A DNA stretch of 64,000 nucleotides, taken from NCBI GenBank assembly GCA_964527235.1, contig CAZGNC010000002.1, forward strand, positions 14,275 through 78,274, given 5' to 3'. The first letter of the stretch is position 1. The number at the start of each line of letters is the position of its first letter. Below are positions 642 to 59,836 of the stretch, piece after piece. The position numbers were made by a program, and so were the translations under genes. This DNA is from an uncultured Candidatus Saccharibacteria bacterium. GTDB lineage: Bacteria > Patescibacteriota > Minisyncoccia > Phycocordibacterales > UBA9973. The notes under the pieces are model-generated. The model searched no databases. It was not told the origin of the DNA and saw nothing but the letters and a program-made list of their open reading frames with translations.

Positions 642-1229
642 TTATAAATTTAGTGCTTTATTTATATCTTTCTGCACATCTTCGATAGACTGCTCGCCGT
701 TTATGGTGTAGATTTCATAACCTGGTTTACCTTTGAAATATTCCATTGCAGGAATTACATTATTCTCATATTCAGCGAACCTGCGCGCTAGGCCTTCTTC
801 TGTATCATCTTTGCGTCCCCTCTTTAGGTTGCGCTTCATAGCTTCTTCTTTACTGAGTTCTATGTAGATAATTTTTACATTTTCTCTGTTGTAGAACTTC
901 ATCATTGCTTCGAAGTTCTCTGACTGCACGATAGTACGGGGATAACCATCAGCGATAAGATGCTTCTCGGGAGTTATGGACGACATTACTATATTTGCAA
1001 ATATAGAATTAGTTAGAAAGTTCGGCTGAAGTTCCCCGCGGTGTAAAGAATCCCGAACCAAACTGCCGGTATAACTATCAGACTCTATGAGGTTTCTAAA
1101 CTCTGCACCAGGGTAGGCATAGACTATCTCCTTGCCATCTTTGGCCTTAAGGAGTTCCATGAGTAGGTTTACTTGAGTTCCTTTACCAGAACCCACTATC
1201 CCAAAAAATACAAAAGTTTGAACTTGCAT
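642..1229 (-). CDS. adk: adenylate kinase
   Basis: P-loop GIVGSGKGT. The NMP-binding and LID regions are present, with ADGYPRT matching the adk DGFPRT motif. The position after secY is the conserved spc-operon position. Confidence 0.85.
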   Translation of the reverse strand: MQVQTFVFFGIVGSGKGTQVNLLMELLKAKDGKEIVYAYPGAEFRNLIESDSYTGSLVRDSLHRGELQPNFLTNSIFANIVMSSITPEKHLIADGYPRTIVQSENFEAMMKFYNRENVKIIYIELSKEEAMKRNLKRGRKDDTEEGLARRFAEYENNVIPAMEYFKGKPGYEIYTINGEQSIEDVQKDINKALNL

Positions 1230-1288
1230 GAATTCAGAATACCTAATTTTACTTGAAAAATCAAGGTTTAACTTGTATTATGTAGGTA

Positions 1289-1855
1289 ATGAAAAAAGAG
1301 ATTATAACTATCTGTGGAGGGCTTGGCAGTGGGAAATCTAGCACTGCGAAACTGGTCGCTAAGGAGCTTGGATTTAAGCATTTTTCCTCTGGGGACTTCT
1401 TTAGACAAGTCGGGGTAGAAATGGGACTGTCTGTAAATGAAATAAATAAAAGAGCAGAATCCGACCCAGAAATTGACTATCGCACAGATCAGAAACTACG
1501 GGACATGAGAGATGCAAGTAAGGTTGTTATAGACTCTCGCACAGCTTTTCATTGGATTCCAGAATCTTTTAAAGTTTACCTCGACCTCCCAGCAGAAATA
1601 GCAAAGCACAGAGTAGTAAAGAGTCTCACTGAAAATTCTTTACGTAACCAAAGTGAGCAAGTTTCAACCCCAGAAGAAGCCTATGAGAAGATGATTGAAA
1701 GACTAGAAAGTGAACAGAAAAGATACTGGAATTTATATAAAATAAATAACAAAGATTTAACTCAGTTCGATCTAGTAGTAGACACAAACAAAAACAACCT
1801 CGAGGAGGTTGTTTCTATCGTACTCAATGAGTACAAAAACTGGCTTTCAAAATAA
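1289..1855 (+). CDS. cmk: cytidylate kinase, archaeal/type-2 form
   Basis: ICGGLGSGKSSTAKLVAKELGFKHFSSGDFFR...DPEIDYRTDQ matches archaeal-type CMP kinases. It is encoded antisense between adk and secY. Confidence 0.65.
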   Translation: MKKEIITICGGLGSGKSSTAKLVAKELGFKHFSSGDFFRQVGVEMGLSVNEINKRAESDPEIDYRTDQKLRDMRDASKVVIDSRTAFHWIPESFKVYLDLPAEIAKHRVVKSLTENSLRNQSEQVSTPEEAYEKMIERLESEQKRYWNLYKINNKDLTQFDLVVDTNKNNLEEVVSIVLNEYKNWLSK

Positions 1856-1858
1856 ATA

Positions 1859-3130
1859 TTAGTACTCTCTCATCGATACCTGAGCATCAACTTTCTTGAT
1901 GAGATCTAGCACAACTGAGACAACGATGAGGAGCGCAGTACCACCGAGCGCAAGCGCTGTGATGTTTGTAAGCGCGCGCATGATTAGGGGCAAGACTGCG
2001 ATAAACCCTAAGAATGTGGCACCAAGAAGTGTAATGCGACTTAGAACTTTAGAGATATATTCAGCAGTAGAAGCACCTGGGCGAATGCCTGGGATAAACG
2101 CACCATTCTTCTGTAAATTCGTGGACAATGCTTCAGGGTCAAAAGTCACCGCAGTGTAGAAGTAAGTGAATAGGAAAACCAAGAAGAAATAAAGCACTGC
2201 ATAGAGCACTGAAGTCTGAGAGAAAGAAAGGAGCACAGCAGAAACTTTAGTTGCTATCGGGCCAGAAAATCTAGAAAGAAACGCACCAATCATCTGAGGG
2301 AAAAGCAATATAGATAGCGCGAAGATTATCGGGATAACTCCAGCTTGGTTAACACGTAGTGGTAGATATGTAGATCCCCCGCCGTAAACCTTGAGTCCTC
2401 TTACACGCTTTGCATAAGTTACAGGGATAGGACGCTCTGCTTCAGTCACCACCACCACCCCAGCAATAATCAACACACCAACAACCACGAACATAATATA
2501 AAGTGGAAGTTGAGAAACATCAAAGGTAAATATCAACTGTGCAACTTCAGAAGGAATACGAGAAACGATACCAGCAAAGATTAGTAGAGAGACTCCGTTA
2601 CCAATACCGAATTCAGAAATAAGTTCACCCAACCACATCAAGAGTATAGAACCAGCGATAACTACGATCAGGTTAGCGATGCGATCGAAAGCAGTAAGCT
2701 CTCCTAAGATGCCCTGATTCTCAAGAATAGCTAGCAAGGAGAAACCTTGGATAGCTGCAAGAGGAACTGTCGCTAGACGAGAGTATTGAGTAAATCTTCG
2801 GCGTCCTGCCTCTCCTTCTTCGTGGTAAATTCGCTTCAAAGCTGGCACCATTATAGTCAAAAGCTGCATTATGATGGAGCTTGTAATGTATGGACCAACA
2901 CCTAGCATGATTATAGATAGGTTAGAAAGACCACCTCCAGAGAATATATTTAAAATTCCAAAGAATTGGTTATTAGAAAGGAAACGAGATAGCGCTACTG
3001 TATCTATTCCTGGTATTGGTATTGCAGAGAAAAGTCTGAAAATAACTAACGCAAAAAATACGAACAAAACCTTACGGCGGAGAGATCTGTCCGTCCATAC
3101 CAATTTAATTTTATTCCAGAAATTTTGCAT
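1859..3130 (-). CDS. secY: preprotein translocase subunit SecY
   Basis: 10-TM protein with the canonical SecY signature GILNIFSGGGLSNLSIIMLGVGPYITSSIIMQLL. Confidence 0.95.
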   Translation of the reverse strand: MQNFWNKIKLVWTDRSLRRKVLFVFFALVIFRLFSAIPIPGIDTVALSRFLSNNQFFGILNIFSGGGLSNLSIIMLGVGPYITSSIIMQLLTIMVPALKRIYHEEGEAGRRRFTQYSRLATVPLAAIQGFSLLAILENQGILGELTAFDRIANLIVVIAGSILLMWLGELISEFGIGNGVSLLIFAGIVSRIPSEVAQLIFTFDVSQLPLYIMFVVVGVLIIAGVVVVTEAERPIPVTYAKRVRGLKVYGGGSTYLPLRVNQAGVIPIIFALSILLFPQMIGAFLSRFSGPIATKVSAVLLSFSQTSVLYAVLYFFLVFLFTYFYTAVTFDPEALSTNLQKNGAFIPGIRPGASTAEYISKVLSRITLLGATFLGFIAVLPLIMRALTNITALALGGTALLIVVSVVLDLIKKVDAQVSMREY

Positions 3131-4926: not shown

Positions 4927-5313
4927 TTAAAAAATTTGGAACAATGCTTCTCCGCCGACATTTTCTTTCCTTGCTTCCTTGCCAGAGAGTATCCCCTTTG
5001 GAGTAGAAAGTACTAATAAACCTCCGCCATTTCGTACTGGATGAATTTCCTTGATACCAAAGTATACTCGTCGGGACTGCTTAGAAATTCTTTGCACATC
5101 AGAAATACGAGGCTTCTTGTCAACGTAAGAAAGCTCTATTTCAAGTACTGGATGATTTAGTCTTACTTTCTTAGAGATCTTGCCAACATAGCCTTCTTTC
5201 TTCAGGCACTCTGCTACAGCGTTCTTCATTTTAGAATAAGGCAACACAACAGACTCCTTACCTGCAAGGCCTGCGTTCTTAAGCATTATTATCATGTTTG
5301 AAATTGGATCCAT
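4927..5313 (-). CDS. rpsH: 30S ribosomal protein S8
   Basis: MDPISNMIIMLKNA...GGEALFQIF. S8 N- and C-terminal motifs. Confidence 0.9.
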   Translation of the reverse strand: MDPISNMIIMLKNAGLAGKESVVLPYSKMKNAVAECLKKEGYVGKISKKVRLNHPVLEIELSYVDKKPRISDVQRISKQSRRVYFGIKEIHPVRNGGGLLVLSTPKGILSGKEARKENVGGEALFQIF

Positions 5314-5329
5314 GTGATTGTATTGATTA

Positions 5330-5515
5330 TTACCAAGAAGATTTACGTACTCCTGGAAGCATGCCCTCGTTAGCTAATTCTCTGAAGCAGATACGGCAGA
5401 TGTTGAAATCTCGCATAAAACCGTTTCCTCGGCCACAGCGAAAACATCGATTTTTCTGTCGAGTGCTAAACTTTGGTGTTTTTTTACTTCGTGCTACTAC
5501 TGATGTTTTTGCCAT
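5330..5515 (-). CDS. rpsN: 30S ribosomal protein S14, zinc-binding type Z
   Basis: 61 aa with CFRCGRGNGFMRDFNICRICFRELA; CxxC...CxxC zinc S14. Confidence 0.9.
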   Translation of the reverse strand: MAKTSVVARSKKTPKFSTRQKNRCFRCGRGNGFMRDFNICRICFRELANEGMLPGVRKSSW

Positions 5516-5629
5516 AAAAAATTATACAGGGTTAGTCTTGCAATATCTCACTTTTTTTCTTTTGAGCCAAAATAATCAGGTCCCAAAAGGAGAAAAGCGG
5601 ATTAATCAAGGCTTATTTCCCTTAGGTAG

Positions 5630-5658
5630 ATACTATCAAATTGAGAGACATTAGTCAA
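5630..5658 (-). promoter_or_regulatory. sigma70-like promoter reading into rpsN: TTGACT, 17 nt, TGaTAGTAT (extended -10)
   Basis: Minus-strand sequence TTGACTaatgtctctcaatttgaTAGTAT lies about 110 nt upstream of the rpsN ATG. Confidence 0.4.
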
Positions 5659-5671
5659 ATATATCCCCTAT

Positions 5672-6190
5672 TTAATATGGATGGCAAAGACAATACTCTT
5701 TGGTCGCCAAGTCATTCGTGCACCAATTAATCACCCCCACAAAAGGTCTGCAAGATGGGGATATACCTATGGTTGTATCAGGCACAGCATCTAAAATGGT
5801 AACCATAAGGGCTCCACTAGAAGTTCCCGGGCCATAGTTATAATAATTATAACCATTGTACAGTTCGGGATTAGTACTATTGGGACTAACAGGCACTGCA
5901 CCGAGAAAACCCTCTGCCACCAACTGGCTAGCCATGGAATCGAAGTTATCTGACCATTGGTTTGTTAAAACATTTGCCCCTTCGTTGGGATATCTTCCAT
6001 GTTCGTCAAAATAAAGTTGTAGTGCGTTAGACACCTGCCTAAGTTCAACTATTTTCTTAATATCTTTAGCTCTCAAACGTGCGTGTCTTAAATTTGCAAA
6101 AATAATAGACGAGAGAAGGCTAATAATAGCCACAACCACCAATAGTTCTATCAGAGTGAAACCTTTTTTTGTTGTGTTTATTTTAAACAT
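5672..6190 (-). CDS. type IV pilin / pseudopilin-like protein (class III signal peptide)
   Basis: N-terminus MFKINTTKKG|FTLIELLVVVAIISLL is the prepilin peptidase cleavage/methylation motif, with Gly at -1 and Glu at +5. There is a C-terminal Cys cluster. Confidence 0.7.
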   Translation of the reverse strand: MFKINTTKKGFTLIELLVVVAIISLLSSIIFANLRHARLRAKDIKKIVELRQVSNALQLYFDEHGRYPNEGANVLTNQWSDNFDSMASQLVAEGFLGAVPVSPNSTNPELYNGYNYYNYGPGTSSGALMVTILDAVPDTTIGISPSCRPFVGVINWCTNDLATKEYCLCHPY

Positions 6191-6202
6191 ATCTCTAACT
6201 CT

Positions 6203-6430
6203 CTATTGAGAAATACCAGCTTGATTAACTCCCAGCCCAGCAGCTTGATTTATCAAAATCATATCCTCTAAAGTATATCTACCGACAGTTGTAGAAATAT
6301 AATGATTAATAAAAAACAAAACTAAAATCATTAATACAGTGCCCAACAAAACATCTGAGATACTATAATATATCTTAATAACACCGTCTTCATGCTCTTT
6401 AACATGCTTCTTCCTAATAAATTTAATCAT
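6203..6430 (-). CDS. small membrane protein, unknown function
   Basis: 75 aa with one TM helix. Same transcription unit as the pilin-like gene. Confidence 0.35.
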   Translation of the reverse strand: MIKFIRKKHVKEHEDGVIKIYYSISDVLLGTVLMILVLFFINHYISTTVGRYTLEDMILINQAAGLGVNQAGISQ

Positions 6431-6436
6431 AAAATA

Positions 6437-6754
6437 TTATCTAACAAATTGAGACTGATCAATTTTCTTAATATCAACCAAATTAGTCCTCTGCACCTGT
6501 CCTGACCTAAAAAAAAGATGGAACGAAGTTATAAGGGCTAAAAATGCTAAGACAAATACCAAATAATCAGCGTGTTCTTCATTTTTTATCAAACCTCCCG
6601 AGTACTTTATTACAAATTGAACCATTCTAGGAGTACTGGAGCCTGGGTTGGGTTTTGAATTTCTAAGTTGTTGATCGACAATTGAAGTTTGATTGAACGC
6701 CCGTAGCGCCTCCCTTATCTCACTGTTGTTGCCAACTCCCATGTTCTCTACCAT
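6437..6754 (-). CDS. hypothetical protein with a C-terminal TM segment
   Basis: 105 aa, tightly spaced with the following genes. A hairpin terminator after rplE lies upstream of it. Confidence 0.35.
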   Translation of the reverse strand: MVENMGVGNNSEIREALRAFNQTSIVDQQLRNSKPNPGSSTPRMVQFVIKYSGGLIKNEEHADYLVFVLAFLALITSFHLFFRSGQVQRTNLVDIKKIDQSQFVR

Positions 6755-10124: not shown

Positions 10125-10481
10125 TTATTTCTTCTTGGCGTCAGCAGCAGCTCCGGCAGTAGCAGTAGCAGCCTTAGCCTGAGTTATCTCAGCTTCTTTC
10201 TTCTTCTGCTCTAATTCTTTCTGCATCTTACCTCCGTGTTTTATAAACTTCTTAGTTGGAGAAAATTCACCAAGTCTGTGACCAACCATGTCTTCGGTAA
10301 CTAGAACATCGATATGGGTTTTGCCGTTATAAACGCCAAAAGTAAACCCGAGCATTTCGGGAGCTATCTGACAAGCCCTTTTCCAGGTCTTGATAGTTGG
10401 TGTATTGAGCGGAGTTTTACCGGCGATCTTCTTCAAGAGGCCTTCGTCCACAAACATTCCTTTTTTAATTGATCGTGTCAT
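10125..10481 (-). CDS. rpsS: 30S ribosomal protein S19, with a Lys/Ala-rich C-terminal tail
   Basis: MTRSIKKGMFVDEGLLKK...GHRLGEFSPT matches the S19 N-terminus (E. coli MPRSLKKGPFID). The ORF-track start at 10523 falls inside the upstream promoter -10 element, so the internal Met at 10481 is preferred. Confidence 0.8.
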   Translation of the reverse strand: MTRSIKKGMFVDEGLLKKIAGKTPLNTPTIKTWKRACQIAPEMLGFTFGVYNGKTHIDVLVTEDMVGHRLGEFSPTKKFIKHGGKMQKELEQKKKEAEITQAKAATATAGAAADAKKK

Positions 10482-10525
10482 ATAACGGGTAACAAAAAAG
10501 CTCCCAATCGAGCCTTGAAACATAC

Positions 10526-10553
10526 TAGCAAATATAAGAAGAATGTCAAACTC
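10526..10553 (-). promoter_or_regulatory. sigma70-like promoter for rpsS-rplV-rpsC... (TTGACA, 16 nt, TAGTAT), at the distal edge of the GC-rich insertion
   Basis: Minus-strand TTGACAttcttcttatatttgcTAGTAT lies immediately downstream of the GC hairpin terminator at 10571-10601. Confidence 0.4.
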
Positions 10554-10557
10554 TTCC

Positions 10558-10601
10558 TAGAAAGAGAGATGCCCGCCTAGCACACAATGGTGCTGGCGGG
10601 C
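10558..10601 (-). terminator. rho-independent terminator of the GC-rich cassette (12-bp GC stem plus T-rich tail)
   Basis: Minus strand: gcccgccagcaccattgtgtgctaggcgggc followed by atctctctttct. Confidence 0.5.
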
Positions 10602-10812
10602 TGTTCCCGATATTACTTCTAGCGTTCCGCTCGCAGAGAGCGGTAAAACATTTTCCCGAGATGCTCGGGTCAGCCCCTGTGAAGTGGTATTCCCTTGCTA
10701 GGAGAGAATAGCACCCATCCACGACCGTAGGCCCGTCGAGATGGTCTCCATTTTTACTAGAGTGGAGATTCTCTTTACTATCCACGGTCAGAGTTCATCC
10801 CGTGGTGCTACT

Positions 10813-11043
10813 TTACGACACCGGCCGGGAGTGAGCGATCGCGAACATCGCAGAGACCACTTCGGCCTGAAGCTCATCGAACTCCGGCTGCGCTGGTGCA
10901 CAGCCCATCAGGTGATGCGCGAGCCGTCTTTCGACGGCCGCGACAGTGTTCTGGTCGCTGACGGGAAACCCAGACAAGACCTGAACCGCAACCTGCTGCG
11001 AGACGACAGACGAACTCCTCTGCTGCGCTGGAAAACGGTACAT
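10813..11043 (-). CDS. GC-rich small ORF (76 aa) of unknown function, inside the rpsS/rplB intergenic insertion
   Basis: The ATG at 11043-11041 is preceded by AGGAGA 7 nt upstream and a near-consensus promoter. About 60% GC against about 40% in flanking genes. No recognisable family. Confidence 0.4.
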   Translation of the reverse strand: MYRFPAQQRSSSVVSQQVAVQVLSGFPVSDQNTVAAVERRLAHHLMGCAPAQPEFDELQAEVVSAMFAIAHSRPVS

Positions 11044-11091
11044 GCAAGTCTCCTGTGAAGAGCGGAGCCCGAAATTGGACCCTCTAAATTA

Positions 11092-11121
11092 GAGTATATC
11101 ACAAATAAACACAAAAGTCAA
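11092..11121 (-). promoter_or_regulatory. near-consensus sigma70 promoter (TTGACT, 17 nt, TGaTATACT) driving the GC-rich small ORF
   Basis: Minus strand: cgtaTTGACTtttgtgtttatttgtgaTATACTcta, with an extended -10 TG. Confidence 0.5.
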
Positions 11122-11155
11122 TACGAAAAAAGCCCTTATTTTAATGGATAAATTG

Positions 11156-11191
11156 GCAAAAGAAGAGCCCCGCCAGACAACCTGGCGGGGC
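11156..11191 (-). terminator. GC-rich hairpin terminator (gccccgccag...ctggcggggc plus T-run) ending an upstream ~300-nt non-coding, hairpin-rich segment (11192-11480)
   Basis: Minus strand: gccccgccaggttgtctggcggggc tcttcttttgcc. Confidence 0.45.
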
Positions 11192-11479
11192 GATTACCGG
11201 CCCTCAAGGGCCAGCATGCCCGAACACGACCATGCGTGCTCGGGGTCAAATATTTCGAGACACATAGAGTGCCTTGATGAAACAAAGGATTGGGCGGGGA
11301 GCCACTAAAAACCGTCCCTTATAACACCAAGAACACCTATGCGCCCGATTTTTCAAGAACTGAAAGTGGGAGAGCCTGGCCAGAGCCGAGCATGAAGTAG
11401 GGTTCCGGGCCCACACAACATGATCGGGATAGCCAGACTCATCTAAAACCAACAATAGCATATTATAAAAATTTGTCAA

Positions 11480-11510
11480 CAAAAAATCCCCTTGATTGGG
11501 GATTCCTTGT
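11480..11510 (-). terminator. host-type rho-independent terminator immediately after rplB
   Basis: Minus strand: ggaatccccaatcaaggggatt followed by tttttg. Confidence 0.55.
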
Positions 11511-11518
11511 TTTTAGTA

Positions 11519-12358
11519 TTATTTATTCTTTCCGGTCTTTCTTCGTGACACGATGAATACGTTTGAGTATTTCTTTGGAGTTCTGGTCTTTCGTCCACCA
11601 GTGATCTTACCCCACATGGTCTTAGGTCGGCGGGTTCCTCGTCCTTGTCTTCCCTCACCTCCTCCGTATGGATGATCTACTGGGTTCATGGCAGTACCTC
11701 GCACTGTTGGGCGGATACCCTTCCAGCGACTTCGTCCTGCTTTACCATAATTTTCCAAATGATGTTCTTCGTTTGAAACTACTCCGATAGATGCCCAGCA
11801 ATTCTCGTCGATTTTTCTAACTTCAGTAGAAGGCATCTTGATGTTAGTGTAACCGTCAGCGTTAGCCACAACTTGGGCGAACACTCCTGCGCCACGACTA
11901 ACTTTCGCACCACCACGAGGCTTGATTTCAATATTGTATACAAAAGTTCCTACTGGGATATTCCTAAGAGGTAGGCGATTTCCTGTAGCAAGCTCAGCTT
12001 TCTCAGAAACGATAAATGTATCTCCGGGCTTAACAGACTTCGGAAGGATTACATATCTCTTCTCTCCATCCTTGTAAACTGCTATACCGATGAAAGCAGA
12101 ACGGTTAGGATCATACTCAACACTCTTGATAGTTGCAGGGATGTCTTTCTTGTCGTATAGAAAATCCACATCTCGGAAGAGTCTCTTGTGTCCCCCACCC
12201 TTGTGTCGCATGGTTATGCGTCCTTGGCTATTTCGGCCAACAGAACGACGAAAACCGTGTACTAGAGATTTCTCTGGAGTAGACTTGGTTAGAACATCGC
12301 GGTAATTGATGTTCGACATCTGTCTGCGTGATTTACTTGTAGGTTTGTATGTCTTCAT
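11519..12358 (-). CDS. rplB: 50S ribosomal protein L2
   Basis: L2 N- and C-terminal domains (HKGGGHKRLFR, GRNSQGRITMRHKGGG..., HPYGGGEGR). Confidence 0.95.
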   Translation of the reverse strand: MKTYKPTSKSRRQMSNINYRDVLTKSTPEKSLVHGFRRSVGRNSQGRITMRHKGGGHKRLFRDVDFLYDKKDIPATIKSVEYDPNRSAFIGIAVYKDGEKRYVILPKSVKPGDTFIVSEKAELATGNRLPLRNIPVGTFVYNIEIKPRGGAKVSRGAGVFAQVVANADGYTNIKMPSTEVRKIDENCWASIGVVSNEEHHLENYGKAGRSRWKGIRPTVRGTAMNPVDHPYGGGEGRQGRGTRRPKTMWGKITGGRKTRTPKKYSNVFIVSRRKTGKNK

Positions 12359-15873: not shown

Positions 15874-16245
15874 CTACACTGTGTCATCCGAGGGGGTTGT
15901 GATCAGCCCGAAGAATCCACGGATCTCCCCACCCAAGTCGACTTCATCATCCCCCTCATTTCTTCTAGGGACGATCAAGAGATTCGGGTCCTGACTATCA
16001 GGAACACTCTCCGTCTGCGATAGAAACACGACACGGATGTGCGGATGGTTCCTCCGAAGCTGGGCCAACTTACCCAGGTTCTGATTCCCCATCACGAGCG
16101 CCCCAACTAGTTGTCTGGTGTTGTCTGCCAGAAAATCGTCCAGACGATCTGCGGCTGGAACAGAAACGTCGACGCCGTTGAGAAGGTCAGAAAGAGAAAC
16201 CTCCCACTCGGAGTCAGACGACACCACCAGTATGCTCTTCTTCAT
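15874..16245 (-). CDS. GC-rich ORF (123 aa); CheY-like receiver-fold protein lacking the phospho-acceptor Asp (pseudo-receiver)
   Basis: Beta1 ILVVSSD, beta4 VVFLSQTES, beta5 LLIVPRR. Own promoter (TTGACA, 17 nt, TAATTT at 16311-16339) and SD GGGAGAG. About 58% GC. Confidence 0.35.
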   Translation of the reverse strand: MKKSILVVSSDSEWEVSLSDLLNGVDVSVPAADRLDDFLADNTRQLVGALVMGNQNLGKLAQLRRNHPHIRVVFLSQTESVPDSQDPNLLIVPRRNEGDDEVDLGGEIRGFFGLITTPSDDTV

Positions 16246-42346: not shown

Positions 42347-42547
42347 ATGAACGACATGCAGAGGGTGTTTGTAGTTGTGAAAATCAACACTAAATACCCC
42401 AAGAGGTGGTCAGTACGTGAAGAAATTCGTAGGATCACTGGTGTGAGTATTCCCTGGAAAGAGGGAGACTCTTACCGTTTCGACATCAAGAAGGGTGACG
42501 TCCGGAAGCTCGTCGACGCCGGCCTCAACGTGGAAGTGGTGGAATGA
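42347..42547 (+). CDS. GC-rich small ORF C1 (66 aa), unknown function
   Basis: Strong SD; about 52% GC. Stop overlaps the next start (ATGA). Confidence 0.4.
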   Translation: MNDMQRVFVVVKINTKYPKRWSVREEIRRITGVSIPWKEGDSYRFDIKKGDVRKLVDAGLNVEVVE

Positions 42548-42792
42548 CAGAAACAAGAGAGAAAGAGAAGCCTTTGTTGATCTTTGGGGGACACGTGGGC
42601 TTGAGCCAGGCCCAAGTAATCAGGATTCTGGACGAACTAGGTGTCCATCACCGAGCAACACCCTCATCGAACCTGTACCACGTCAGGGTGTCAGAGTCCA
42701 GCGACCTGAGCTGGATTGATCGGTTGCTGGAACGGGGTATCGACATTTCGCCGCCCGGCAAGATTCATCAGGTGCCAACGCCAAAGAGATAA
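42544..42792 (+). CDS. GC-rich small ORF C2 (82 aa), unknown function; translationally coupled to C1
   Basis: 4-nt overlap with C1, followed by a GC hairpin terminator (42821-42856). Confidence 0.4.
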   Translation: MTETREKEKPLLIFGGHVGLSQAQVIRILDELGVHHRATPSSNLYHVRVSESSDLSWIDRLLERGIDISPPGKIHQVPTPKR

Positions 42793-42820
42793 GGCGACTA
42801 GCACCTTCATCAAAAACGAA

Positions 42821-42856
42821 AGCGCCACCGAGATTCGGTTGGCGCTGTTTTTGTTT
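42821..42856 (+). terminator. rho-independent terminator of cassette C (agcgccaccgagattcggttggcgct plus T-run)
   Basis: 8-bp GC stem followed by gtttttgttt. Confidence 0.55.
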
Positions 42857-42863
42857 ATGGGTG

Positions 42864-53269: not shown

Positions 53270-53341
53270 GCCCTCATAGTTCAATGGATAGAATGCGAGC
53301 TTGCGGAGTTTGCGATGTAGGTTCGATTCCTACTGAGGGCA
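53270..53341 (+). tRNA. tRNA-Arg (anticodon tentatively GCG; the anticodon stem needs two G-U pairs)
   Basis: gccctca ta gttc aatggata gaat g cgagc uuGCGga gtttg cgat gtagg ttcgatt cctac tgagggc a. Confidence 0.5.
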
Positions 53342-53415
53342 CAAAATAACAAAATACCCAGTTTCTGGGATTTTTAGAACTATAAAATATAATAAAAATT
53401 CCTCTCTACAGATAC

Positions 53416-53444
53416 TTGACTTTTTGAGTCGGTGGTGATATAAT
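53416..53444 (+). promoter_or_regulatory. consensus sigma70 promoter TTGACT, 17 nt, TGaTATAAT for the GC-rich collagen-like gene
   Basis: cTTGACTttttgagtcggtggtgaTATAATcac; then SD GAGGGGG 7 nt before the ATG at 53514. Confidence 0.55.
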
Positions 53445-53513
53445 CACGAAAGATCCTAAGTGGGGCACCCTGCCCTAATGAACCTTGATTTATGCCCTCC
53501 GAGGGGGCAAAAT

Positions 53514-54296
53514 ATGTGGCTGATCAAGATGCTAGCATTCTGCTTCCTTTGGGCCATCATGGCCGCAGAGGAAGGGCTCCGCCTAGTGGCGGACGCCCTG
53601 AAGGAGTCCTTCGGGACGGCGCTTCTGGGGAGGAAAAACGTACCGTTCTTGGTGTTGGCGCTCATCCTGAGCACAACCCAGCTCGAGGCGCAAGCACCCC
53701 GACGGACCGCAGACAACTCTGTAACCCCCCAGTGCAACCTGGGGACCGACTGGTCGGTCAACAAAAACCGCCCCGTTGCTTCCGACGAGAAGCTCTACCG
53801 CCTCGAAGGCGGTCCCGCCATCGTCGCCCAGCGCGAAGCACCCGGATCGACGCACATCGTCTACCGGCGATGCAATGTACCCCCAGGAACCGAAGCGTAC
53901 TGCAGCATCAGAGGCTGCTGGATCAAGGTCTGTGGCAACGACCTTGGTTCTCCTGAAGGATGGAAGTTCCCCATCGAAATACCGATGGGAGCGCCTGGAG
54001 TGAACGGGCGCGACGGGAAGGATGGACGAGATGGCCGTGATGGACAGATCGTCTACGCTCCCCCTGCATCGACCGCCCTAGTGCCAGACTTCGACGGACG
54101 ATACAAGGTCCGCGGGGATAGGGGCTTCTGGTGTTTCCGTGGTGCAGGTCAAGGTGCATTTTGCACCGCGATCGCCACCACAGCGGTCCTTGTGGCCAAG
54201 AACAACCTGCCACGAAAGGATGACGAGCCCAAGGGCGGCAAGCCCATCGTCGTAACCCTCCCCAACACAATCCTGATGGCGCTGTTGGGTCGATAA
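53514..54296 (+). CDS. GC-rich (about 58% GC) secreted protein with a short collagen-like Gly-X-Y run and several Cys; unknown function
   Basis: Hydrophobic N-terminus MWLIKMLAFCFLWAIMAA. GAPGVNGRDGKDGRDGRDGQ gives six triplets. The start is chosen at the SD-preceded ATG rather than the longer ORF-track start. Confidence 0.45.
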   Translation: MWLIKMLAFCFLWAIMAAEEGLRLVADALKESFGTALLGRKNVPFLVLALILSTTQLEAQAPRRTADNSVTPQCNLGTDWSVNKNRPVASDEKLYRLEGGPAIVAQREAPGSTHIVYRRCNVPPGTEAYCSIRGCWIKVCGNDLGSPEGWKFPIEIPMGAPGVNGRDGKDGRDGRDGQIVYAPPASTALVPDFDGRYKVRGDRGFWCFRGAGQGAFCTAIATTAVLVAKNNLPRKDDEPKGGKPIVVTLPNTILMALLGR

Positions 54297-54414
54297 CATC
54301 TTGCAGGAGGTTGAGTACTGGAAAGGACTCATCTTCCTGTACTCTTCAAAGTTATGAGAACAAAGTCATGATTTTGAAGAGTAAAATATTAGTTTTACTT
54401 TTAATTAAATTATT

Positions 54415-57400
54415 ATGAAAAAAATAAAAACGTTTGCAAAATTATTAATGGTCGCAATTATCGCTTTCGCGGGAGTATTTGCTAATGCAAATCTAGTCCA
54501 GGCTGACTATGCAATACCTGCATGTAACACAGCTACCCTAAACGGAGCGGTAAATCCTAATGGCGCAGTAACTACTGTGTGGTTTGAATGGGGCCCAGGT
54601 TCTTCCATGCCCTATTCGACACCAAAGCAGACTTTCACCACAAGTGGAACTTTCAGCCAAAAAATAAGTGGCCTTCAAGAAAACTCTTCTTACTCTTTCC
54701 AAGCAGTAGCTCAGAATAGTTTCGGCACTTCTTATGGTTCAGTTATTTCTTTCACAACTCAAAACTGTACCCCAACTGTACCAGCTCCAACTGTAAATAT
54801 TTCTGCAGACTCTACCAACCTTTCATACAACGGCGCAACAACAGTTCGCTGGAATTCAACCGATGCTACTTCTTGTTCTGCATCTGGTGGCACAAACGGC
54901 TGGTCAGGAAACAAAGCAACTTCAGGTAGTTTCTATACAGGCAACCTAACATCTAACTCAACTTTCCACATTTCGTGTTCAAACTCTACCGGCTCAGACT
55001 CTGACTCGGTAACAATAAACGTTGCAAGCGCTCCAGTACAGAACCCAACTGTAAGTATTTCTGCTAGTCCTTCTTCTGTAGCATACAACGGTGCAAGTAC
55101 CATATCTTGGAATTCTGCAAACGCAACTTCATGTTCTGCATCTAGTGGTACAAATGGATGGTCAGGAAATAAGGCTCTGTCAGGAAGTTTCTACACCGGC
55201 AACCTAACTAACACTACGACTTTCACTATCACCTGTACTAATAGTTCAGGTCAGCCAGCTTCTGATTCAGTAACTGTGAGTGTAGGTAATGCGCCTGTAA
55301 GTAGCCCTACTGTAAGTATCACCGCTGATAATTCTAACCTCCCCTACAACGGCTCAACAACCATCCGTTGGAGTTCCAACAATGCTACTTCATGTTCTGC
55401 AACTGGTGGCACAAACGGATGGGCAGGAAACAAAGCTCTATCTGGAAGTGCAAGCACTGGATCACTAACAAATTCTCAAACTTACAATATCACCTGTACA
55501 AATAGTTCAGGCTCCGCTAGTGACTCAGTATTTGTAAACGTAGGCAATGCCCCTGTAATAAGTGCTCCTACTGTAAACATAACTGCAGACAGTTCTAATG
55601 TTGCTTATAACGGTTCTACCACTATCCGATGGAATTCTAGTAACGCTACTTCTTGTTCTGCTTCAGGTGGTGTAAATGGTTGGTCTGGCAGTAAGGCATT
55701 ATTGGGAAGTTTCCATACTGGAAGCCTAACAAACGCAGCCACATTTCATATAAATTGTAGTAACAGCAGTGGCTCTGATAACGCTTCTGTAACCGTAAGC
55801 GTAGGAAGTCAGCAGGTACAAATGCCAATCGTCACAATATCTGCAAACCCAAACAACGTGTCCTACAATGGCACAAGTATAATAATTTGGAGTTCCACTG
55901 ACGCAACTTCATGTAACGCTTCAGGCGGCACCAACGGATGGGCAGGTACAAAATCTTTGTACGGCAACTTCAACACCGGAGCGATGACAGGCACTCGAAC
56001 ATTCAACATAACTTGTAGCAACTCTGCAGGGTCCAACAGCGCCTCAGTCACAGTAACTGTCGGAAACCAACAGATTATTAATCCGAACGTAACAATTTAC
56101 GCTGACGATAACGACATAGACGAAGACGACAGCACTATTATCCGCTGGACTTCTAACAACGCAGACTCTTGTTCTGCATCAGGTGGTGCAAATGGTTGGT
56201 CAGGAAGCAAAGCTCTATCTGGAAGCTTCCACACTGGCTCACTATCTAGCAACCGCACATTTAGCATAACTTGTAGTAACGAACAGGGATCAGACTCTGA
56301 TTCTGTAACCATAAATGTAGATGAGGATAATGGATCTTCAGGAGACATCAGTGTTGACCTTACAGCTGACGACACAAGTATCGACGAAGGAGATAATGTA
56401 AGACTTCGATGGGATTCTGACAACGCCGACGACTGTGAAACCATAGGAGGAACAAGCGACTGGAATCGTAAAAACATCGGCACATCTGGCTCATTCACTG
56501 TTAACGATCTTGATGATGATGAAACATTCAAAATCGAATGTACTAACGACGACGGAGATTCTGACACCGACTCTGTAACAGTACGTGTAAGTGGCAACAG
56601 CAATAACAACGACCGCCCTACGGTAGACCTAACTGTTGATCGTTCTGTTATAAATGCTGGCCAAAGCACTACTGTCCGCTGGGATGTAGAAGACGCCGAT
56701 GATTGTTACGCTTCTGGGGGGACAAATGGTTGGTCTGGGAGCAAGAACCGCTCTAGTGGTAGCTTCTCAACAGGCGCTATGTACGGAAGTGCAACATTCT
56801 TCCTTGATTGTGGAAACGATGAAGGTAACGAAAGTGATTCTGTAACAGTACAGGTTGTAAGTACTCCTGTAGTACAACCTCCCCAGACTATATATATCCC
56901 TAGCCCAGCCCCTGCTCCAATAGTAAGAAACACAACAACTTACATAAACACTGGTGGAGTATCTAAGCCTCTTGTAGAGCTTACTATCGACGGTGGCGAT
57001 GATTCTATCTCTACCAACGAAGAACGCATCTATGATGTTGAGTGGAAAAATATAAGCGGTCAAACTCTAAGAAAAGTTGCTCTACGAATAGTATTGCCTG
57101 AGTCTATGACTTTCGAGAATACAAATCGTGGATCTTATACTTCGAAAGATAACACCATCACCCTAGACGTAGACGAGCTTCGTCCTGGTGAAACTGGTGA
57201 TATGCTTTTCACAGCTAGAACCAAATCAACACTACGAAACAATCAGCTTGTTGTGGTTGTAGCCAACATGGTGTACACCGACAACTCTGATACCCAAGGC
57301 GATGTGGTTGCATACGCAACTCACCATGTAGACCTAGGTGGTAGTGTATTAGGAGCGAATGTATTCGGTGCAGGATTCTTCCCTACTACTCTTCTCGGAT

Positions 57401-59625: not shown

Positions 59626-59683
59626 CTTTGACTTTTGGTATATAAATTTGCTTTAATTTGGTTGAATCCAACCGGAGCTCTTA

Positions 59684-59836
59684 ATGTCTTCATGGGATAC
59701 GTTCGGACCACCCGAACCATGCCCTAATTGCGGACTTAGGTACTGTGGAGTACTTCAGCCGTGTCAGGGCAAAGAAAAAGATCCTGAGCCTCCAACGCCA
59801 CCCGTAGATAAAAAACCCGACAAGGCCCCGGCCTAG
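59684..59836 (+). CDS. unannotated GC-rich small ORF (50 aa): Cys-rich N-terminus (CPNC...C...C) plus Pro/Lys-rich tail
   Basis: SD GGAG 6 nt upstream. Followed by a GC hairpin (cccgac...gtcggg, 59815-59843). About 56% GC. Below the ORF-track size cutoff. Confidence 0.35.
   Translation: MSSWDTFGPPEPCPNCGLRYCGVLQPCQGKEKDPEPPTPPVDKKPDKAPA

Follow-up and report, generated by a model that had tools for sequence, protein, structure and literature searches.

A persistently GC-rich gene with a densely folded predicted message and its putative collagen-stalk surface protein in Candidatus Nomurabacteria

A GC-rich island in an AT-rich genome is routinely attributed either to foreign DNA or to a non-coding RNA. 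Contig CAZGNC010000002.1 of assembly GCA_964527235.1 contains an island of this kind, and the question it raises is what keeps one gene rich in GC beside AT-rich neighbours. The stretch analysed, referred to as the window, comprises 64,000 nucleotides (nt) of that contig. The gene, here called the small gene, lies between a tRNA-Arg and the gene of a giant surface protein (Table 1). An earlier note, made from the letters of the window, had read it as coding for a secreted collagen-like protein and had suggested that it was acquired horizontally. The unexpected part of the answer is the combination of a persistent GC inflation with a coding sequence (CDS) studded with predicted hairpins.

Coding status and persistent GC of the small gene

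The small gene is a genuine protein-coding gene. Since GC-rich DNA leaves long open frames, its coding signal was tested. The open frame was found in + frame 0 only, every other frame containing 4–12 stops; GC at codon positions 1, 2 and 3 was 0.62, 0.50 and 0.70, with G at 37% of the first positions. The presence of a single open frame, together with this codon-position pattern, indicates that the open reading frame (ORF) is not a mere by-product of GC richness. When the core of the head domain (see below) was compared with those of two orthologues (62% and 49% identity), the nonsynonymous divergence (dN) was 0.11–0.20, the proportion of synonymous differences (pS) 0.67–0.79 and the synonymous divergence (dS) at least 1.6. 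Synonymous sites were thus saturated in these two comparisons, and dN/dS was ~0.06. The longest ORF found mechanically starts at GTG 53460 (278 aa). A start at ATG 53514 (260 aa) is more likely, since it leaves a 5′ untranslated region (UTR) of ~63 nt that resembles the 58–60 nt of the orthologues; public gene calls also start the protein (P0001) at this ATG. An internal TTG or GTG start at the signal peptide was considered and rejected: the nearest sequence like a Shine-Dalgarno (SD), GGGAGG, lies 15–18 nt upstream, and UTR length favours ATG 53514.

GC was 0.607 over the CDS (53514..54296), 0.561 over 53270..54296 and 0.413 over the whole window, in agreement with the figures of the earlier note (about 58% for the gene in a genome of about 40%). 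In 300-nt scanning windows, the stretch ~53450..54300, at ~60% GC, was the top GC island of the 64 kb. The same note had correctly placed the gene between tRNA-Arg and the giant-protein gene, and the promoter (TTGACT, 17 nt, TGaTATAAT) and the SD sequence (GAGGGGG) that it had read were both found. The promoter scored 11/12 with its TG extension and was the best site within the 2 kb scanned; judging from its position, transcription would start at ~53451. The SD sequence (53501..53507) lies 6 nt ahead of ATG 53514 and falls within the second of two hairpins predicted in the 5′-UTR.

The gene is part of a conserved module, which was identified in 16 further distinct Nomurabacteria/Paceibacterota loci (17 in all). 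Its order is a promoter (TTGAC., TGnTA.AAT), the gene of a small protein predicted to be secreted and anchored, a double hairpin, and the giant gene. The loci (L001, L002, L004, L012/L185, L014, L026, L092, L095, L116/L203, L119, L129/L133, L148, L153, L170, L189 and L194) were recovered by a RuvA-anchored scan with local tblastn, by GC scans, and by a scan of metagenomes for the motif of hairpin B (Table 1), which gave 120 matches, mostly due to chance, 13 of them real. The RuvA relatives of the window belong to Candidatus Nomurabacteria/Paceibacterota (best identity 98%, the next 71–77%). The promoter design TTGAC(T/A)..TGnTA(T/C)AAT was also found 5′ of the orthologues. Since the same gene arrangement recurs in independent assemblies (Logan, ENA, JGI and metagenome-assembled genomes from GenBank), an assembly artefact can be ruled out.

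The high GC of the small gene has persisted despite the saturated synonymous divergence. All close orthologues are GC-rich (0.57–0.635). Across loci the GC of the gene is bimodal, being either 0.57–0.64 (flanks 0.35–0.46) or 0.38–0.40 (flanks 0.31–0.37), and no intermediate value was found among the loci examined. In the window copy, L001, L002 and L004, G+C occupies 60–74% of the 4-fold degenerate sites (giant gene, 17–30%; UvrA, 39%), and GC at third codon positions (GC3) is 0.59–0.71; in L014 and L026 GC3 is 0.74–0.77. Adaptation to the codon usage of the host was considered as the source of this high GC3 and rejected, as the highly expressed tuf and the ribosomal protein genes favour T or A at 4-fold sites (87% A+T in tuf). 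A single import followed by amelioration is disfavoured, because GC3 would have been lost with synonymous sites saturated; repeated import is disfavoured as well, because the gene would have to be replaced exactly each time, between flanks that are AT-rich and conserved. A force specific to this gene that acts on its composition is the simpler reading.

The earlier note had held that homologues at native GC in relatives would speak against a foreign origin. Versions of the locus with 38–40% GC do exist in genomes of 31–37% GC (L012/L185, L095, L116 and L129), which bears the test out for the locus. Those copies carry a different head, so they say nothing of the head family of the window protein.

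A recent islet, that is, a gene from a GC-rich donor that a phage or mobile element placed next to tRNA-Arg too recently for amelioration, would explain the sharp step of 20 GC points around one gene beside a tRNA, and a codon usage that differs from that of the host. Related genomes contain other single-gene GC islands (in L013, and the BACON gene of L004), every Logan contig breaks off at the tRNA, and L002 has just the last 15–17 nt of the tRNA before the gene. The explanation is nevertheless distinctly improbable. The note had proposed looking for attL/attR sites, but the 3′-end of tRNA-Arg is not duplicated in the window: a 22-mer (up to 3 mismatches) and a 15-mer (up to 2 mismatches) each occurred once in the 64 kb. 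No integrase, recombinase or phage genes adjoin the small gene; next to it lie genes for a DoxX protein, for two functionally uncharacterised proteins and for the giant surface protein (DUF11 and Filamin-like matches). The search of phage databases, also suggested in the note, gave no phage relatives: none of the viral contigs searched encodes a relative of the small protein, and the best match in PHROGs (phrog_1806, E 0.0011) was confined to the Gly-X-Y run (aa 157–181). Moreover, the AT-rich promoter and the 3′ hairpins are conserved with the gene in the 16 further loci, GC is bimodal without intermediates, and the gene has diverged together with its AT-rich neighbour at saturated dS, over which amelioration should have erased the GC3.

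In the relatives, tRNA-Arg(GCG) is usually nearby, on either strand and 0.1 to 5.6 kb away, and it is a loosely syntenic neighbour rather than an integration site. Identities of the small and giant genes match in the three closest comparisons (61.8/61.1%, 49.1/46.1% and 41.0/42.8%), so the two genes have travelled together. The claim of a horizontal acquisition at the tRNA is therefore not supported: given the missing 3′-end duplicate, the lack of integrase or phage genes, the variable distance and orientation of the tRNA and the co-divergence with the giant gene, the small gene was not recently imported, and is best read as maintained vertically with some exchange.

The tRNA showed some further peculiarities. 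In L001, L026, L092 and L119 it lies in the opposite orientation to the gene. The three Logan contigs that contain the gene start in or at tRNA-Arg (L001 1..43, L002 30..46, L003 1..64); the remnant in L002, the only recognisable part of the tRNA there, follows unrelated sequence. These contig starts may mean that the assembly broke where a tRNA is shared, or that the region was rearranged locally.

Predicted folding of the message

The small gene showed an excess of predicted mRNA folding over synonymous shuffles, which preserve the protein and the codon usage (15–32 shuffles per gene). The minimum free energy (MFE) of the window CDS was −348.6 kcal/mol, versus −302.5 kcal/mol for the shuffled sequences (z −6.5). 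The z-scores were −6.4, −4.5, −2.7 and −4.5 for the orthologues L001, L002, L004 and L026, respectively, and −7.4, −10.8, −11.5 and −3.9 for L092, L119, L194 and L153; the AT-rich versions L129 and L116 gave −8.3 and −4.0. The gain in MFE over the shuffles was 8–25%, and the excess was distributed along the CDS. The whole transcript, compared with dinucleotide shuffles, gave a z of −7.3. Over the first 600 nt, the mean z of 42 other genes of the window was −0.57 (standard deviation 1.29, minimum −4.07), that of the small gene being −10.3.

Most of the excess derived from short perfect hairpins, with stems of 6–12 bp and loops of 3–8 nt. When perfect hairpins were counted (stem of at least 6 bp, loop of 3–8 nt), the observed and expected numbers were 6 and 1.2 in the window copy, 10 and 1.6 in L092, 11 and 1.2 in L119, and 11 and 2.5 in L194. 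In most GC-rich copies they were enriched 4–9 times, and control genes were close to expectation. Hairpins occurred at the same protein positions with differing sequence, as at ‘C.LGT(D)W’ (four orthologues), ‘YRLEGG’ and ‘PIE..MG’. In eight of nine genes the excess was larger on the sense strand, modestly so, and the helices of the AT-rich L129 include G-U pairs. A single conserved mRNA architecture was considered and rejected, the structure conservation index (SCI) among four orthologues being 0.196; for this reason selection, if real, would act on foldedness rather than on one architecture.

In an AT-rich genome, an island of high GC that follows a strong promoter and has a transcript predicted to fold this strongly (z −7.3) might also be a structured non-coding or dual-function RNA in which the ORF is secondary, and a second GC-rich island in the window, between rpsS and rplB, has the same promoter type, is predicted to be strongly structured and is at least partly non-coding. 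We consider this alternative the most improbable of those weighed. In scans of the island against Rfam 15, with gathering and with permissive thresholds, the tRNA alone reached its gathering score, and the sub-threshold matches were at chance level; in addition, codon periodicity is clear, dN/dS is ~0.06, a confident fold prediction exists for the protein family and, as the SCI indicates, the RNA structure is not conserved.

The encoded protein, its partner and the preferred explanation

The small protein is predicted to begin with a Sec-type signal, followed by a head domain, a collagen-like run and a C-terminal transmembrane (TM) helix (Table 1). The orthologues open with a canonical Sec signal, such as MRVIAVVFLALFVGFPLEAQA, with P just after the presumed cleavage site; in the window copy a hydrophobic/amphipathic extension of 38 aa, absent from the orthologues, comes before the signal segment. 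AlphaFold2 (AF2) placed helices at aa 2–32, 43–54 and 212–231. The AF2 models are monomers and were built from a 39-sequence input, an input of three sequences having given a predicted local distance difference test (pLDDT) value of 44. In the 39-sequence alignment, the head residues C74, R86, C120, W136, C140 and G141 were invariant in the family. The head has five cysteines, C130 and C135 being subfamily-specific; two further cysteines near the TM helix are not conserved. All orthologues share the C-terminal hydrophobic helix and the short basic/Pro tail, where N230, N231, P233, P239, K240 and G241 are conserved. The Gly-X-Y run of the window protein scored 15.4 bits against the Pfam family Collagen (PF01391), under the gathering cutoff of 27.2; the runs are longer in relatives, and P0010, P0028, P0037, P0038 and P0056 have PF01391 matches.

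When 5.8 billion proteins were searched with a word index, only the gene itself and two relatives were returned. Among cluster representatives, searched exhaustively with HMMER, there were 54 relatives at E ≤1e-3, nearly all of 180–390 aa, which share one plan: a Sec-type signal, a head of ~90 aa, a Gly-X-Y run that varies in length, a hydrophobic helix and a basic/Pro tail. The window protein has the features by which the family was defined, namely the six invariant head residues and, beyond them, a Gly-X-Y run and a TM helix. The head had no match in Pfam, NCBIfam, PHROGs or PDB sequences, where the Gly-X-Y run alone scored, and fold searches of PDB and BFVD with the full-length model gave nothing significant for it. 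No relatives emerged from pattern-based searches of GTDB genomes, JGI metagenomes and IMG/VR. A profile search with the full-length alignment gave 10 matches, dominated by collagen words, and one with the head alone gave no match. From sequence comparison, the protein appears to define a new family (Cys head, Gly-X-Y run and TM helix, in Paceibacterota) within the bacterial collagen-like surface proteins. The Gly-X-Y stalk may form a triple helix and probably trimerises.

Unrelated heads have been swapped between genomes on a near-constant signal peptide, stalk and tail; for instance, P0036 (‘GQVVYAPPAPTALAPDFGGRYEVR’) and the window protein (‘GQIVYAPPASTALVPDFDGRYKVR’) have unrelated heads. 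At least four head types occur at the locus. The heads of L148 and L194 share one type with those of L095, L116, L129 and L012, so that this type is found in both GC states. Such exchange on a constant frame is what would be expected of a tip that binds a ligand or host.

The partner has the composition of the host (GC 0.44, GC3 0.34) and was present at every locus reaching far enough downstream. The giant protein has an N-terminal domain (‘CNTATLNG..WFEWG’), followed by immunoglobulin (Ig)-like repeats of ~86 aa with Cys pairs; across loci, the giant proteins begin with ‘C.SATL.G....WF(E/D)WG’. At the DNA level, at least 6–7 tandem repeats of 258–261 nt (86–87 aa), with 60–86% identity, lie at 54824..56320, and each bears the Cys motif ‘C.ASGGTNGWSG’.

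Two hairpins are conserved between the small and giant genes. The double hairpin was seen at the same position in L001, L002, L004, L012, L014 and L026 and in 13 metagenome loci, and corresponds to no Rfam family. For hairpin B, 93.7% of the alignment cells were paired, and six pairs showed double changes; none of 500 shuffles reached the observed pairing, and slid controls gave 35–44%. Hairpin B is probably the 3′-end of the transcript or a stabiliser of it; the double hairpin may serve to terminate transcription, to stabilise the 3′-end or to allow processing.

Table 1. Features of the locus in the window (strand + throughout; the functional labels of the hairpins, promoter and protein segments are predictions)
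Feature	Position	Strand	Details
tRNA-Arg(GCG)	53270..53342	+	ARAGORN; Rfam 63.5 bits
Terminator-like small hairpin and T run, CCCAGTTTCTGGG ATTTTT, 3′ of tRNA-Arg	53357..53375	+	
Sigma-70-type promoter	53416..53444	+	TTGACT 53416..53421; 17-nt spacer; TATAAT 53439..53444; TG 53436..53437
5′-UTR, ~63 nt	53451..53513	+	Two predicted hairpins, 53462..53475 and 53494..53508
Small-gene CDS, 260 aa (P0001)	53514..54296	+	60.7% GC
Signal-peptide-like Sec-type segment, GRKNVPFLVLALILSTTQLEAQA, aa 39..61	53628..53696	+	Probable cleavage after AQA; read from sequence
Head domain, aa 70..157, small all-beta	53721..53984	+	AF2, pLDDT ~95
Collagen-like run, GAPGVNGRDGKDGRDGRDGQ, aa 159..179	53988..54050	+	7 perfect Gly-X-Y triplets, charged, GRD/GKD-rich
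C-terminal TM helix, aa 212..231	54147..54206	+	AF2; followed by short basic/Pro tail, NNLPRKDDEPKGGKP...
3′ hairpin A, GC-rich	54303..54339	+	Stem kept, sequence varies between genomes (7 loci folded singly)
3′ hairpin B, TACTCTTCAAAGTTATGA..TCATGATTTTGAAGAGTA (= ACTCTTCAAAG...CTTTGAAGAGT)	54340..54383	+	Conserved between the small and giant genes
Partner giant gene, 1029 aa	54415..57504	+	Signal peptide, Ig-like repeats, DUF11/CLIPPER, C-terminal TM anchor

Much of what the earlier note had said of the protein was upheld. The hydrophobic N-terminus corresponds to the signal-like segment and its extension, the short Gly-X-Y run consists of the seven triplets of Table 1, and the cysteines are those of the head and of the region near the TM helix. 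A secreted, collagen-like surface protein tied to the giant protein is supported by the Sec signals, the C-terminal helices and the pairing of the two genes in all sufficiently long loci; the location of the small protein at the surface is predicted from these signals. A role as a host-interaction factor gained support from the architecture and the conserved pairing, and head swapping on a constant signal, stalk and anchor fits it.

Taken together, the explanation to which we lean, if only by a little, is that the gene codes for a membrane-anchored collagen-stalk surface protein with a hypervariable head, organised like the streptococcal collagen-like (Scl) proteins, and that its mRNA is selected for dense structure, GC being the means. 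According to this explanation, the strong promoter would give rise to a monocistronic message, the most likely end of which is the conserved double hairpin. The Sec signal would direct export of the product, and the C-terminal helix would anchor it in the membrane; on a short stalk of charged Gly-X-Y triplets, probably trimeric, it would display its small beta head with the cysteines. It would be made beside the giant Ig-repeat/DUF11 protein and presumably work with it. Selection for a densely folded message would hold GC high by forming many short local hairpins through synonymous codons, the GC enrichment at synonymous sites being a means to, or a by-product of, selection on structure. The small protein is probably abundant and its gene highly expressed, and the folding may serve mRNA stability or ribosome pacing. 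The consensus promoter, strong SD sequence, 5′-UTR hairpins and 3′ double hairpin resemble the features of long-lived mRNAs that code for abundant envelope proteins, such as the ompA and S-layer mRNAs. Structure in the CDS is reported to prolong the functional half-life of mRNAs (10.1101/549022).

More tentatively, and with less confidence than in the above, the locus might represent a gene-specific compositional equilibrium under selection for nucleic-acid structure, in which a clade of ultra-small bacteria has long kept a hypervariable adhesin gene hairpin-studded, and in many lineages GC-inflated, among AT-rich neighbours. Its purpose could be an ‘armoured’, long-lived mRNA in ribosome-poor cells, or a hairpin-driven exchange of heads. 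To our knowledge, there is no description of either in a bacterial protein-coding gene.

The main rival to selection on RNA structure is a role at the DNA level: GC and palindromes could promote recombination or template switching and so diversify an antigen, or could be the mutational trace that template switching leaves at a hyper-transcribed locus. The swapped heads and the mosaic locus would fit this, as would hairpin sequences that differ between orthologues at the same positions, palindromes that fold on both strands with near-equal excess, and the precedent of the Borrelia vls locus (PMC11499132). We nonetheless judge it rather unlikely, as the 64-kb window contains no silent cassettes or paralogues, the GC skew of the CDS is −0.011 (versus 0.52 in vls), purifying selection on the head core is strong, and the sense strand is slightly better folded in eight of nine genes, with G-U pairs in the helices of L129.

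Several observations weigh against the preferred explanation, that is, an Scl-like protein with a message selected for structure. RNA structure is throughout an in silico prediction, and four copies show little folding excess (L014, −1.65; L148, −1.9; L012, −1.8; L095, −2.0). The global structure is not conserved among the four orthologues (SCI 0.196). Watson-Crick hairpins are symmetric between strands and the sense bias is modest, which would also fit a cause at the DNA level. With respect to the protein, the 38-aa extension before the signal sequence of the window copy has no explanation, and seven triplets are short for a stable triple helix. Finally, the giant C-termini of L004 and L026 are 69% identical when their small genes are 29% identical; owing to this discordant pair, some exchange of alleles must be admitted, and inheritance is not purely vertical.

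Other GC-rich sites and comparison with known systems

The window and the related loci contain other GC-rich or promoter-led sites. On the − strand, a GC-rich insert of ~1 kb (10524..11518, up to 0.58) between rpsS (10125..10523) and rplB (11519..12358) has two promoter-led units. Unit 1 (~11135..11450) has no ORF, a folding z of −8.2, a GC hairpin and T run at its end and no Rfam match; it is probably an undescribed structured RNA. Unit 2 (~10545..11085; 59% GC, z −4.4) has a promoter of the same type as the small gene, TATTGACTTTT..TGTGATATACT, and a possible ORF of ~77 aa (MYRFPAQQRSS...). An ORF of 123 aa just upstream of tuf (15874..16245, − strand) has a GC of 0.54 (0.63, 0.36 and 0.62 at codon positions 1, 2 and 3) and looks receiver-domain-like by sequence. 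The region 42380..42860, beside tRNA-Leu and rplS, is also GC-rich (up to 0.57); it has no convincing long ORF and no Rfam match, folds only weakly on the − strand (z −2.0), and includes a possible + strand ORF of 82 aa (42544..42792). At 59628..59836, a TTGACTTTT site right after fpg is followed by an ORF of 50 aa rich in Cys and Pro (MSSWDTFGPPEPCPNCGLRYCGVLQPCQGKEKDPEPP...).

In L004, a GC-rich gene with BACON/Flg_new_2 domains (1183..2016, − strand; GC 0.64, GC3 0.75) adjoins the orthologous small gene; its mRNA is over-folded (z −6.1) with no excess of perfect hairpins. L013 contains a single-gene GC island (5951..6562, − strand; GC 0.60, GC3 0.78) that codes for an apparently cytoplasmic protein of 203 aa ending in ‘...DWDDSWWFAGVRK’; an AT-rich ORF beside it (5200..5661, − strand) carries the same motif, ‘DWNDNWWFAGVR’, internally. 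The GC-rich mRNA of L013 is not over-folded (z −1.2), so the GC islands of these genomes are not all of one kind.

At the locus studied here, the signal of a GC island marks a native protein-coding gene, the composition and synonymous codons of which have apparently been shaped by nucleic-acid structure. If true, this would be a natural case of structure selection along a whole coding sequence in bacteria, seen at 17 loci in independent assemblies. The work also defines a two-gene surface module in Nomurabacteria, made of a variable-head collagen-stalk protein and a giant Ig-repeat protein, which is a concrete candidate for contact between episymbiont and host in bacteria of the candidate phyla radiation (CPR).

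Four known systems offer parallels. In Borrelia, the vls cassettes have 49% GC in a genome of 28.6% GC, and their inverted repeats are always present although their sequence is not conserved (PMC11499132). As here, a surface-protein locus stands ~20 GC points above an AT-rich genome across species. Unlike vls, where GC skew is strong and a silent cassette array undergoes gene conversion, the window shows none of these, the small gene being single-copy in the 64 kb, with the CDS GC skew given above. In the genome-scale ordered RNA structure (GORS) of RNA viruses, a folding excess is spread along the molecule without one conserved architecture, as in the small gene. Compared with these viral structures and with structure-stabilised mRNAs, the present case concerns a single bacterial gene, and its folding is predicted.

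Bacillus BclA and the collagen-like tail fibres of phages also join a short trimerising Gly-X-Y run to a globular domain, and the PDB and PHROG matches of the small protein lie in that run only. In these proteins the globular domain is C-terminal (C1q/TNF-like in BclA), whereas the head found here is N-terminal, has no fold match and has no phage context.

The closest likeness in organisation is to the Scl proteins, which consist of a signal, a variable head, a charged Gly-X-Y stalk and an envelope anchor, the head varying between strains and the stalk and anchor being kept (PMC8968730). The small protein has the same order of parts as these collagen-like ‘lollipop’ adhesins (Scl1 and Scl2), including the N-terminal variable head. 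There is no sequence kinship beyond the Gly-X-Y run (NCBIfam NF038329/NF038330, 12.1 bits versus a cutoff of 325), and Scl1 and Scl2 are anchored by LPXTG, a motif that the small protein lacks, its anchor being the TM helix with a basic tail. It differs further from the Scl proteins in having only seven triplets (more in its relatives), a Cys-containing beta head without a fold match, a CPR host and a giant Ig-repeat partner.

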